From Eledone cirrhosa (taxonomy: Eukaryota): DNA of 64,000 nt. The translations under genes were made by a program, and so were the position numbers. This document shows positions 7,106 through 62,597 of the stretch, piece after piece. Every line of letters starts with the position of its first letter. Position 1 is the stretch's first letter. Location of the stretch: assembly GCA_964016885.1 (NCBI GenBank), contig OZ024740.1, forward strand, positions 350,114,001 to 350,178,000. Reading direction: 5' to 3'. Below the pieces are notes generated by a model that was not told where the DNA came from, did not search any database, and worked only from the letters and a program-made list of their open reading frames with translations.

Positions 7106-7683
7106 TTGTTATATTTGGGGAGGGTCATATTTGCGTAATATTGCCAGAATTAATAACAGAACACACTCACTGTTTGGTTGGTTTTCGCTTCTCGCTGTCT
7201 TTTATATATATATATATCTGCGATCTAACTTACTCGGTCCTCAATGTTGCCATTGACTGACCGGCGGTCAAAAATAATACAGATACAATATAGACACAAA
7301 CACATATATATAGTTTACATAATTTACATAAATCTTTCGTTGCACATCTGCAACATCGTCAGTGGTGTTATATTCATTGTTCCTCCTGTTGTGTTGTATG
7401 TCTACGCCATTTTTTTTTTTTGTTCAGTCTGTCTATATATTTATTTATTTATTTGCTTGTTTGTTTATCTTATTTTATTTTGTCTTCTTTGCGCATGCGT
7501 TTGCGTGTGTGTATAGTGTTGTGTCTGCTGGGTGACTAGTGCGAAAACCAACCAAACAGTGAGTGTGTTCTGTTATTAATTCTGGCAATATTACGCAAAT
7601 ATGACCCTCCCCAAATATAACAATATCTGTTTCGACACACGATTTCATATAAAAAACCTCGCAAAACTAATTCATCGCCGCTA
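7106..7683. mobile_element. PLE 3'-end fold-back insertion in (TA)n
   Basis: 7106-7187 is inverted at 7541-7622 and the right arm extends to 7683. The left arm equals the 3' UTR of the PLE at 62 kb; HHR core at 7335-7362 (-). Confidence 0.88.
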
Positions 7684-9079
7684 TATAAATATATATATAT
7701 GTATATACACACACACACACACACACACACACACACACACACACACACACACACACACACACACACACACACACACATATATATATATATATATATATAT
7801 ATATATATATATATATATATTTATTAAAATAACAGATTAAAGTTTAAGCAAAGAATCGGTGCCTTCACCCTTAACGGGATCTTCTGAAACTAACAAAGTC
7901 AATCTGTAAACGCAGAACTGCAGAACTGGATATTTCAAAAAACGTTGCGACCGGAGGAAGACAGGAAGACGATACTTTGGTTCGTGGTAACGTTCGCTGG
8001 CAAAGAACGGGAAAAAAAGAATAATACGTCATTAATAGGAGCGGTGAAAAACAATTACGCGCAAAGACAAAACCACGTTTATGGTATAAAAGAGGTCGTA
8101 GACTAATGTTCTCTTAGGTGGTGCATAGAGACGTTCTCTGGCAATGAACGAAAAAACGAAGATAATAAGTCATATGTGGAGCGTGGAGAACAATAGCACG
8201 CAAAGACAAAACCACGTAAATGGTATAGCAGAAATCGTAGACTAAAATTCTAACTAGGAGACCAAATGAATCTCCGCTACAGAGTTAAGAACAAAGTAAA
8301 TAAATACAATACAGAAGTAATAGGAACAAATAAATACATACACGCAAACAGATACGTACATACACAAGCATACGCAAAACCTTACCATGGGTATACAAAA
8401 CCACGCACATATAAATATGTGTGTGTGTGTATGCTTGTGTACAAATAAATAAATAATTATATAAACGTATATAAGTAAATAAATACGTATATAACAAGCG
8501 CACACGCATACCTACATATAAATACACGAATGTTGGGAGACGTAAGTCAACTAAAACAAGAAGTACACATATACGCACACCCACCATACGCACGAACCTG
8601 CACACTCACGCGGACGCAAAACTCCCGTATACACATATATATATATATATATCTTCAGACTGACTGCTAGTGGGATTTTTTCCAGAAGTAGAATTGTGTC
8701 AATGATCAGGAATAAATATTAACTATAAAGTAAAATTATCAGGTTTTATCTATTTTAAATAATGAAAATGACTATTCCCCACAGTAGAAAATGACTATTC
8801 CCCACTGCATGTTATTACTCTAAGGTTTTATACCTTATCGAGTCCTTGGCTGCACTTCTGAATGAATTTGTCGGCTTAGCTGCGGCTCGAGCTTCGAATA
8901 TGCTGTACTTCCATTTGTATATATATATATATATATATATATATATATATATATATATATATATATATATATATATATATATATATATATATATGAAAAT
9001 ATATATATATATATATATATATATATATATATATATATATATATATATATATATATATATAGATAGACACTGGTAATTT

Positions 9080-10300
9080 TTCTGACCGATCTTTGTGGTG
9101 ATATTGTTTCACGGCAACAAACGGTGTCCTTTGCAATGTCCAGAAAGTATTTCCTTTTTAGTACTGTCGTTTCATTATGTAGGTGGTCTGGTGGTTTGGC
9201 TTGTGTACAATCTGTCGTTATGGATAGTGTACTTCTTTGTGTACGCTGGTAAAAAGGAAGACAGTGGACTTGGTACGTACTACTTTAATGTTATTGTGGA
9301 GTCAGGTTTCTAGGTAATTTAAATAGCATTGAAGTATCTGTGCAACAGTGATCAAAACATAATGGGAGAATGTGATTGTGATGCTATCTGATTTTAAAGT
9401 TGTCTGTATATTTTGTTGATGTCATGAATGTATAGATTAAAATGAATTGGTGAAAGGATGACTCCTCTGGATACTTCAGTCAGGGAATTGTATTTCTGGA
9501 AAGTTTCGTAGCATAAGTTTCGTAGTTTGACAGGTATTTTGCTATTTAGTATTTTATGCCGTTTTTTAAGGAGACGTTGAGTAATTTTTTTATACGAGTG
9601 GATAGTAGGAGATGGAATCAAAAGTTTGCTGGCGTTGGAGGTTGTTAGAATTTTACCTGTATTTTTCTTGCTGATGTCATCCTGTATATTATGTGTTAGG
9701 TTTAAGAGTAATGATTTGAATAAGCGTTGTAATTTGATGAAGGTGTGTGTGTGAATTAGTGATATCAAGGATTCATTTTTCTAGAATTTTAGGGATGTCA
9801 TTAAGAGGATGACCTTACATCACTTGGGTTTTTGTTCGGCTTCATAATTATCATATTTCTGCCTAATTTGGGGATTTGTCCGTGTTCGTGGCATGTGTAG
9901 TTGCCGATGTTGGTGAAGCACTAGGAGTTCACGTGTATGTTTGGGATAATGTCAAGCGCTGAGGTTTTTATTAAAAAAAATTTCCTAATTTTTTCAGGGA
10001 GACTGATAGAAAAACGTTGTGGGTGTCAAGATTAAGGTGGAAGCGTATCTTTCGTGTTGGGTTCCTTTCTTCTTTGTGTGGGTTTCGATGGTTCGCTTTT
10101 GAGAAATGTCTTTTTAGGAGAAATACTTTTATTTCGAATGTAAATGTGTAGCAATTGTTGTTATTGATGATGATGGTAATTACTTTATACAGTATTTTAT
10201 TGTTTGTTTTGTATTATACGAAACAAATGTTTGTCAGCTTGCTGTTTTTCTGAGGTTGATTTCTTTTTATATTTCCTTGATGCTGAGTATATTTCGGTTG
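9080..10300 (-). pseudogene. Highly degraded LINE RT remnant
   Basis: EVSRGVILSPIHFNLYIHDI resembles the RT GVxQGxxLSPxLFNLY motif; the minus strand is A-rich. Confidence 0.4.
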
Positions 10301-60432: not shown

Positions 60433-60745
60433 GGAGGCGCGTGGCTTAGTGGTTAGAGCATTGGGCTTGCAATTGAGAGGTTGTGAGTTCGATTCTCGGA
60501 TCGGGTGATGCGTTGTGTCTTTGAGCAAGACACTTTATTTCACGTTGCTCCAGTTTACTCAGCTGTAGAAATGAGTTGCGACGTCAGTGGTGCCAAGCAG
60601 TAGTAGTCATTGTCTTTCCCTTGGACACCATTGGTGGCGCGGAGTGGGGAGATTGGTATGCATGGGTGACCTTGCTCAGGCTTTTGCTCTGGAGGGAAAC
60701 TTTCTAGGTGCAAAACCATGGTCATTCGTGACCAAGTGGGGCCTA
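60433..60745 (+). mobile_element. Second tRNA-derived SINE family
   Basis: Box A gtggcttagtggttag and box B gagttcgattctc, followed by tgtgtctttgagcaagacactt...actcagctgtagaaatgag, a conserved SINE core-like motif. Confidence 0.8.
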
Positions 60746-62060
60746 TTTATTCAACTGAATTTTCAGTTACACATTCAGACACACACACGCACATTATCTT
60801 ACAACTGACAAAAACATTTTTATAACAACTGATCGAGAAGACCTATGACCAAAGTCATTCCAGCTGTGACGATCATGTGAAAGGAATATATAATAGCATT
60901 ATCCAATATGTCATTTTCCAAAACGTTAGAATATTATACGAGGGAGAATTGGTTGTTATTATTAGCAGATAGTTTCGAAATACTTCCCAGTTAAGAGTGC
61001 TACTGGATATTTATTACAAAGCATTTTTGTTCTGCACCTGTACTCCTACAGCATTTATTTAATTGGGGGTGGGTTATCGAGTTTAGTTGTGAAGGTAGTA
61101 GAGAGACAAGTAACCTTTTAGAAAAGAAGAGTACTTGCAACAGAAATATAATCATTTTACAAGACAAAAATTGCTGTGTCTCATGAGAAAAACAAAACTC
61201 CGAAAACCAAACATCGAAAATGTCTAATACATTTTAATAATATATGATTAGTGATTTTGGTTGTCATACACAGATTAAGGAATGATGTTGTCGTGCGTTT
61301 TCTTGTTATAGTTGCTTAAATTAAACATTTGAAGATAACGGTTGGTTTACATTCAGAATGCATAAATATAGATTTAGAATTAAATGCCACATTTAAAGAG
61401 CATGTGTAAAATTTTATGTTTTTAGCTTTAAAGGTCGATCTTTTAGGATTAAAAGTTAGCATATGTTCATGTCATTGTATGTGTATACATAAGTATATTT
61501 GTTCATGTATGTATATATGTCAGTGAGTGAGTGTGTGCGTGTGTGTGTGTACGTATGTATGTATTTAATGTATTTATGTATGTGAGTATGTGTGAGTGTT
61601 TTTGTGTGAGTGTGTGTGTGTGTGTGTGTGTGTGTGTGTGTGTGTGTGTGTGTGTGTGTGTGTGTGTGCGTGTAAGTATTGTTGTTTGCTTAAGTTAACT
61701 TTAGGAATAACATTTTGAAATGTAAAGTCAAAAGTTCTAAATAGGTAGGTAGGTCGATAGATAGATAAAAAGAGAGATGCATGCATATATACATATTAAC
61801 ATTCATATATAAATACACACACGCATCGTTTTAAAGTCCAAGTTTCATGCTGGCATAGGTTGGGAGGGGCGCTTTTGAGACATATGCCATTTCCGACGCC
61901 AATCCTTACTTTAAGTATGACCCCTCTTCTGCTGATATTCATCCAATGCTATATTTAAGAGATATAATCGTTGCATTGTGTATGTGTGCATATGTGCATG
62001 TGAGAGAGGGGGCGAAGCGAGAGGGTGATGGGTTGATATATATATATATATATATATATA

Positions 62061-62597
62061 TTGTTATATTTGGGGAGGGTCATATTTGCGTAATATTGCC
62101 AGAATTAATAACAGAACACACTCACTGTTTGGTTGGTTTTCGCTTCTCGCTGTCTTTTATATATATATATCTGCGATCTAACTTACTCGGTCCTCAATGT
62201 TGCCATTGACTGACCGGCGGTCAAAAATAATACAGATACAATATAGACACAAATACATATATATAGTTTACATAATTTACATAAATCTTTCGTTGCACAT
62301 CTGCAACATCGTCAGTGGTGTTATATTCACTGTTCCTCCTGTTGTGTTGTATGTCTACGCCATTTTTTTATTCAGTCTGTCTATATATTTATTTATTTAT
62401 TTGCTTGTTTCTTTATCTTATTTTATTTTGTCTTCTTTGCGCATGCGTTTGCGTGTGTGTATAGTGTTATGTGTGATGTGTGACTAGTGTGTATAGTGTT
62501 GTGTCTGCTGGGTGACTAGTGTGTGTTTATGTGCTTGTTGTTATTGTGCTTGTGTATGTATTTATTTATCTTATTTTATTTAATTTTATTTACTTAT
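62061..62597 (-). mobile_element. 3' UTR/pseudo-LTR of the PLE at 62598-63917, ending in (TA)n; carries an HHR-like core at 62288-62315
   Basis: 62061-62521 is near-identical to 7106-7541. The minus strand reads CTGACGA-T-GTTGCA-GATG-TGCAAC-GAAA. Confidence 0.85.

Follow-up and report, generated by a model that had tools for sequence, protein, structure and literature searches.

How does a reverse-transcribed element come to stand in a genome as two inverted copies of its own 3' end, one reaching further than the other? The question is raised by a 64,000-nucleotide stretch of Eledone cirrhosa DNA (assembly GCA_964016885.1, contig OZ024740.1, positions 350,114,001 to 350,178,000; hereafter the window), which is microsatellite-rich with 35.5% GC and in which short inverted repeats, predicted to derive from Penelope-like elements (PLEs), sit in (TA)n tracts. 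An initial annotation had proposed that each family of these repeats uses two fixed 3' endpoints about 60-95 nt apart, the shorter lying at an AT microhomology, and that two cDNAs (complementary DNAs) are started at a distal and an internal site.

Two 3' ends in TA-flanked fold-backs

We enumerated inverted repeats lying at most 3.5 kb apart by a masked self-search of this single window, which returned 26 local cases. Twelve are fold-backs arranged head to head with both outer ends on (TA)n, ten are pairs of dispersed repeats resembling short interspersed nuclear elements (SINE-like), two (13223 and 48242) are weak hairpins that lack TA flanks, one (37099-37429) has a central (AT)20 as its axis of symmetry and the last is an arm at 49837 that ends off-site. 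All nine one-sided extensions named in the initial annotation were found again to within a few bases, and three further fold-backs (27994-28621, 27698-27977 and 26029-26365) came to light. Homology sorts the twelve into ten families, labelled A-J in this analysis, seven of which have more than one copy (G, H and J are single-copy). The 3' ends point outward, as shown by an open reading frame (ORF) in family A and by hammerhead-like cores in six of the ten families.

Each of the twelve fold-backs carries one long and one short 3' end. Measured from the last unique base of the short end to the last unique base of the long end, microhomology included, the offsets are 60, 60, 78, 80, 80, 80, 85, 88, 89, 90, 95 and 133 nt, the last (family J) becoming 146 nt if counted to the first pure TA run. 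The range of about 60-95 nt proposed earlier therefore describes 11 of the 12 fold-backs but not family J (~133-146 nt), and the offset, thought to be fixed across diverged families, is constant within a family but differs between families (60 to 133+ nt). If the arms chose their ends independently and with equal probability, twelve unlike pairs would arise with P = 2.4e-4. No long/long or short/short pair occurs among the twelve, and the systematic inverted-repeat scan of the window revealed no symmetric pair with outer TA flanks.

Since two unequal ends will always look like a long and a short one, the real test lies in the positions of the ends across copies, all of which come from this window. 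The seven multi-copy families provide 27 ends, 14 of which define the sites and leave 13 free; 12 of these 13 lie no more than 6 nt from a site (P = 2e-8 to 9e-7), in copies that are 73-98% identical and differ in their flanks and central junctions. A homologous base is reused as the short end at 7107/55015/62062 (with ~25965 lying 4 nt off) and at 7821/34249, as had been claimed for 7106, 55013 and 62061 and for 7821 and ~34250, and also at 20939/44022, 33002/49029 and 27698/17193. Long ends recur at 7682/56309, 20748/450, 33422/48752, 27994/50547 and 50583/~28696. Both types of end are also found on single arms, four of which carry the short end (7821, 17193, ~25965 and 44022) and two the long end (450 and ~28696).

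A/T overlap at the ends

At the short end of all twelve fold-backs, the next 2-6 bases of the element are alternating A/T and keep phase with the target. With one value per family (the lower, capped at 6 nt), the overlaps of the ten families sum to 39 nt, whereas 9.7 nt would be expected if breakpoints could fall at any position of these sequences (P = 6e-9; P = 3e-6 under a best-phase null). The continuation ATAT given in the initial annotation is exact in five of the twelve, the others reading TA, TAT, TAT, TATA, TATA, TATAT and TATATA. Scanning the last 75 nt of the arm together with the tail, we found unused alternating A/T runs as long as, or longer than, that at the short site in 11 of 11 fold-backs (the one at 52.8 kb was left out), and the tail of the 34 kb fold-back (family C) holds unused runs of 7 and 8 nt. 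As better AT runs nearby remain unused, microhomology does not select the short site: pairing with (TA)n sets the register only, and the position is set by something else.

Only in family E can sequence past the long end be read: its copies at tandem junctions (28190 and 50038) show that the template continues G-ATAT(AT). At both long ends of this family ATAT matches and the G is a mismatch. In these two cases from one family the long-end site is internal to the template and is not a free RNA end; the long end may also be AT-paired, with the G mismatch in each case. The distal start of the earlier proposal consequently need not be a free RNA end, because the family E template runs past it.

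Two direct partial tandems flanked by TA (32037-32618, unit 511 nt; 15203-15507, unit 260 nt), whose end type is not assigned, also end on an AT overlap, of 6 nt at 32618 and 3 nt at 15203; part of the second, 15291-15361, is tRNA-like (Rfam, 35 bits). At the central junction of the family E fold-back (28172-28190), ~11-13 nt fit the left arm's end as well as the long-end sequence in the tandem unit, and joining by microhomology is possible there.

Penelope-like identity and neighbouring features

Judged from their sequence, the elements are Penelope-like, with a reverse transcriptase (RT), a GIY-YIG endonuclease at the C terminus, a CX4CxxC linker and hammerhead-like cores confined to the sense strand. 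RT and GIY-YIG stand in one ORF of a tail family only in family A (Table 1); this ORF has no Pfam match, it is matched best by a protein of Octopus vulgaris (65% identity, E 4e-151) and it matches the GIY-YIG ORF at 44 kb weakly (E 2e-7). The latter matches Pfam RVT_1 (E 0.003) and GIY-YIG (E 4e-7) and has no homology link to any tail family. In both ORFs the CX4CxxC linker precedes the C-terminal GIY-YIG, which agrees with the motif defining Neptune and Nematis, a CX2-5CxxC linker upstream of a C-terminal GIY-YIG (PMC8557442), and does not separate the two; the one point in favour of Neptune is the microsatellite bias that this paper describes for it. For family A, Naiad, which has an N-terminal endonuclease and no hammerhead, was ruled out by the C-terminal endonuclease and the hammerhead-like core, whereas families B, G, I and J, without an ORF, could be Naiads. 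Miniature inverted-repeat transposable elements (MITEs) and other DNA transposons with terminal inverted repeats were ruled out, as the ends are asymmetric and the centres vary between copies.

A motif scan of 28 arms on either strand found hammerhead-like cores in families A, D, E and H and variant cores in C and F, outward-reading only and 28-228 nt upstream of the short end, and none in B, G, I and J. The Rfam hammerhead model was not among the matches listed (150 of 255), nor did it appear in a further Rfam search; the Rfam matches in the window are microsatellite-driven microRNA (miRNA) models below threshold and the one tRNA-like stretch. The inverted or partial-tandem 5'-truncated structure of PLEs is present in the twelve fold-backs and in the inverted arm with partial tandem at 49837-50547. 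The tail is one-sided in 12 of 12, but measures 60-133+ nt against the 30-40 bp of the PLE definition.

Table 1. Features of the window, by family. Tail, one-sided extension of the long-end arm; overlap, A/T microhomology at the short end; PLE, Penelope-like element; strands in brackets.
Feature	Position	Tail	Overlap	Remarks
A, fold-back	7107..7682	7623-7682 (60 nt)	ATAT	short-end arm 7107-7541 (- sense, 435 nt), long-end arm 7541-7682 (+); arms identical 82/82
A, fold-back	55015..56309	56250-56309 (60 nt)	ATAT	arm identity 97.2%; GIY-YIG remnants in each arm; hammerhead-like core ~56059-56087 (+)
A, element	62062..64000 (-)			short 3' end at 62062; extends past window edge; 98% identity to 7.1 kb arm
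A, ORF fragment of putative PLE	62598..63917 (-)			439 aa; RT core YVDD, CX4CxxC linker, C-terminal GIY-YIG-type endonuclease
A, diverged single arm	25860..25965 (+)			ends at short site (+4 nt); start approximate
B, fold-back	20748..20939	20748-20827 (80 nt, - sense)	TAT	
B, single arm	450..588 (-)			long end at 450; 87% identity to 20.7 kb copy
B, single arm	44022..44075 (-)			short end at 44022; 5' limit approximate
C, fold-back	33794..34249	33794-33883 (90 nt, - sense)	ATAT	longer unused TA runs within tail
C, single arm	7821..8251 (-)			short end at 7821
D, fold-back	33002..33422	33328-33422 (95 nt, +)	ATAT	type I hammerhead-like cores at 33231 (+), 33097 (-)
D, subfamily (79% identity), fold-back	48752..49029	48752-48840 (89 nt, - sense)	TAT	
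E, fold-back	27994..28621	27994-28078 (85 nt)	TATATA	tandem junction ~28190
E, inverted arm and partial tandem	49837..50547			inverted arm 49837-49980, off-site end on (GA)n; partial tandem 49976-50547 ends at long site
F, fold-back	50583..52733	50583-50662 (80 nt, - sense)	TA	unpaired centre 945 nt
F, single short piece	28696..28785 (-)			carries long end
G, fold-back, single copy	57713..58048	57713-57792 (80 nt)	ATAT	
H, fold-back, single copy	52745..52928	52745-52822 (78 nt)	TATAT	2-nt indel beside junction
I, fold-back	27698..27977	27890-27977 (88 nt incl. poly-C run)	TATA	
I, single arm	17193..17342 (-)			ends at short site (+6 nt)
J, fold-back, single copy	26029..26365	~133-146 nt (~26029-26161 = 133)	TATA	arms 34 nt only
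Second ORF fragment of putative PLE	44107..45315 (+)			frameshifted; RT, CX4CxxC linker, GIY-YIG
SINE-like copies	649-748, 2138-2391, 4575-4763, 22646-22998, 23951-24091, 25467-25683, 38170-38355, 59527-59745, others			

Several arms lack a partner. A further hammerhead-bearing family is represented by the single arms 32652-32784 (-) and 40857-41071 (+), which end 58 and 63 nt past the core at an approximately homologous place, and a third, degenerate GIY-YIG remnant (31216-31968, +) is a single arm running from one TA run to another at 31969. The 5' truncation points often coincide with hairpins or with the start of the hammerhead core (20884, 588, 52872, 33165 and 57920), and the 5' stops of two family B copies lie a few bases apart; stalling of the RT at such points is possible. 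Families E and F are neighbours across a TA run at two loci (28621-28696 and 50547-50583), with different E ends at the junction, probably through reuse of a hot spot, and nested reuse of TA runs is also seen at 7682/7821, 33422/33794 and 52733/52745.

The inverted repeat at 37099-37429 is the only symmetric case and may have arisen by tail-to-tail insertion or by repair at a TA cruciform. The dispersed SINE-like family is unrelated to the fold-backs, and several of its copies have one end at the same base. A GC-rich non-LTR (long terminal repeat) retrotransposon occupies 45849-48686 (+), with RVT_1 and zf-RVT in an 858-aa frame, and older fragments related to it lie at 2594-3301 on the opposite strand. 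Scanning bacterial and archaeal genomes for host-derived contigs found none.

Origin of the paired ends

The explanation that we favour, with moderate confidence, is that a (TA)n tract is cut and cDNA primed from each of the ends so made, one at a distal and one at a proximal start, with a ribonucleoprotein (RNP) setting the position and a few AU bases the register, and that the products are joined head to head. The fold-backs would then be 5'-truncated head-to-head insertions into (TA)n of PLEs whose GIY-YIG endonuclease is C-terminal (Neptune/Nematis type), and the one-sided extension would be the PLE tail. The RNP would break the tract, after which one 3'-OH would use the distal site for priming and its counterpart the proximal one, on the same bound RNA or within an asymmetric complex. 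Protein/RNA geometry would fix where synthesis starts, pairing of a few A/U bases to the (TA)n primer would determine the register, and the two cDNAs would halt at variable points before being end-joined head to head; failure of one reaction would leave a single arm with either type of end. The two cDNAs of the initial annotation, started distally and internally, fit these data and amount essentially to the result published for the PLE Poseidon_Ac, to go by the accessible parts of that report (PMC11167929), although the pairing with (TA)n is not what selects the site.

A more speculative form of this explanation, which we put forward tentatively, is obligate asymmetric twin priming, in which an RT-endonuclease dimer on one RNA would keep the two broken (TA)n ends at the two start sites and would have the tail as its ruler (60-135 nt in the present lineage, against 30-40 nt in Penelope/Poseidon), both starts using short, telomerase-like primer-template pairing with the microsatellite.

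Several points weigh against priming at two sites. Only three of the ten families (A, B and D) have both of their ends replicated, the numbers are small and come from a single 64-kb window, and the 49837 arm, the sole exception, ends 198 nt before the family E long end, on (GA)n. The ORF link is to family A alone, the other families having no ORF remnant in the window, and in families B, G, I and J the putative orientation and PLE identity are read from architecture alone. Folding of 15 tails at 37 C revealed no shared RNA structure (mean tail z = -0.6), and in the same tails the short site shows no consistent unpairing (0.48 against a background of 0.54). For Poseidon_Ac, the accessible parts of the report describe starts with no homology to the cut DNA, an AC-rich stem-loop and no strand difference (PMC11167929). 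The near-perfect palindromes, with loops of 1-8 nt at 33.0, 52.8 and 57.8 kb (the 20.8 kb fold-back is nearly so), are explained at least as simply by snap-back of one cDNA, and later central deletions of palindromes could mimic unequal arm lengths.

Such snap-back is the alternative that survives best, and we regard it as unlikely but worth serious consideration. A singly primed cDNA from the distal start would snap back (or self-prime on an antisense template) and be copied towards the target, endonuclease cutting or a bound RNP would resolve the intermediate 60-130 nt early, and AT microhomology would join the product to the other (TA)n end. This would yield a long and a short end and near-identical arms automatically (arm identity within fold-backs is 91-100%), would suit the palindromes at 20.8, 33.0, 52.8 and 57.8 kb, and draws on self-priming and endonuclease-mediated resolution as earlier published proposals (PMC3846280, PMC8557442). 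At 7.1, 28.1, 48.8 and 27.7 kb, however, the short-end arm has sequence without counterpart in the long-end arm, most plainly at 7.1 kb, where 435 nt face 82 nt in arms that are 100% identical. The short-end arm reaches further 5' in five fold-backs (7.1, 20.8 by 4 nt, 27.7, 28.1 and 48.8 kb) and the long-end arm in two (34 and 55 kb), the reach being not assignable in two; as it varies in either direction, neither arm is a simple copy of the other. Four single arms end at the short site without a long partner, and the two start sites were directly seen in vitro, according to the accessible parts of PMC11167929. Arm geometry and single arms together are fitted better by two separately primed cDNAs than by snap-back of one.

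Secondary loss is much less probable. Long/long insertions that lost one tail by slippage, or by microhomology-mediated joining of an internal AT to the flanking (TA)n, would produce the AT microhomology at the short end, and microhomology-mediated deletions are common in PLEs (PMC3846280); yet no long/long or short/short pair remains, even the fold-back with identical arms being unlike at its ends, subfamilies 73-87% identical use the same site, and longer AT runs nearby are unused. Slightly less probable still is that two RNPs or RNAs prime independently at either site, the 12 of 12 reflecting luck or selection against perfect terminal palindromes. The accessible parts of PMC11167929 report no strand difference in start-site use in vitro, and in published descriptions the tail is 'optional' or 'often' one-sided, but the probability given above for equal choice only falls if choice is biased, and the scan of the window held no symmetric TA-flanked pair. 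Copying of the entire asymmetric fold-back, in the manner of a MITE or through segmental duplication, would let copies inherit coincident ends and might account for E and F adjoining twice (28.6 and 50.55 kb), but is largely refuted, since central junctions and arm lengths vary among copies of A, B, C, D and E, the arms of one fold-back are more alike than diverged family copies, flanks past the TA runs differ, and E meets F by its short end at 28.6 kb and by its long end at 50.55 kb.

Twin priming is known from L1, where both target strands prime cDNA, the second internally via microhomology, to give an inversion; there the position of the internal site varies, and neither segment repeats the sequence of the other. 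In the fold-backs, by contrast, the second site is fixed and the same 3' region is present in both arms.

Closer parallels exist among PLEs. Head-to-head inverted 5'-truncated copies, one-sided 3' extensions and partial tandems are described for Penelope of D. virilis, Pen_Av of Adineta vaga and Naiad (PMC3846280, PMC8557442 and the accessible parts of PMC2377424). The published tail measures 30-40 bp and is found on one inverted pLTR (the PLE terminal repeat) only (PMC3846280, PMC8557442), with printed lengths of 31 bp and a 34-37 bp repeat in what is accessible of PMC2377424. In contrast to these 'optional' tails, those described here are 60-95 nt long (one 133+), two to four times the published length, stand on exactly one arm in 12 of 12 cases and carry a measured AT microhomology. 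(TA)n targets have been reported for Naiads and a microsatellite bias proposed for Neptune (PMC8557442). In vitro target-primed reverse transcription by Poseidon_Ac (Frangieh et al. 2024) showed that the tail is delimited by two internal RT start sites, which lie next to each other downstream of the hammerhead; genomic ends fall on the two sites, the target is AT-rich, both strands are cut and extended, and a dimer is predicted (PMC11167929, accessible parts). The fold-backs share with it the two fixed tail-delimiting ends and the AT-rich target, but Poseidon_Ac belongs to the Penelope/Poseidon clade, another PLE type, and here the proximal site always has a 2-6 nt AT overlap, the ends are always unlike and no common stem-loop is seen.

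Short hammerhead-bearing tandem units such as that of family E (~511 nt) also resemble non-LTR retrozymes, or non-autonomous PLE derivatives (bioRxiv 10.64898/2026.07.22.740005), and opposite-strand hammerhead pairs 100-700 bp apart have been noted (PMC4209133); the accessible parts of these two sources do not describe paired long and short ends, nor do those of PMC8969392, PMC13282606, PMC9977147, PMC12910113 and PMC6007223. Tails longer than 40 bp, strict pairing and AT microhomology at PLE 3' ends are unreported in the literature searched, outside which lie most subscription papers and Repbase. With the one-sided tail and its explanation by two RT starts already published, the additions made here are modest: long tails, strict long/short pairing and AT microhomology.

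The formation of inverted PLE insertions and the choice of microsatellites have been described as open (PMC8557442), and only one PLE has been reconstituted to date. Strict long/short pairing would tie the two arms found in genomes to the pair of start sites observed in vitro, and for clades that target microsatellites the conclusion of 'no homology' would be qualified by an AT overlap at the start. Annotation can easily mistake such fold-backs for MITEs or miRNA hairpins. If obligate asymmetric twin priming were true, the head-to-head structure, the tail and microsatellite targeting would be one mechanism.

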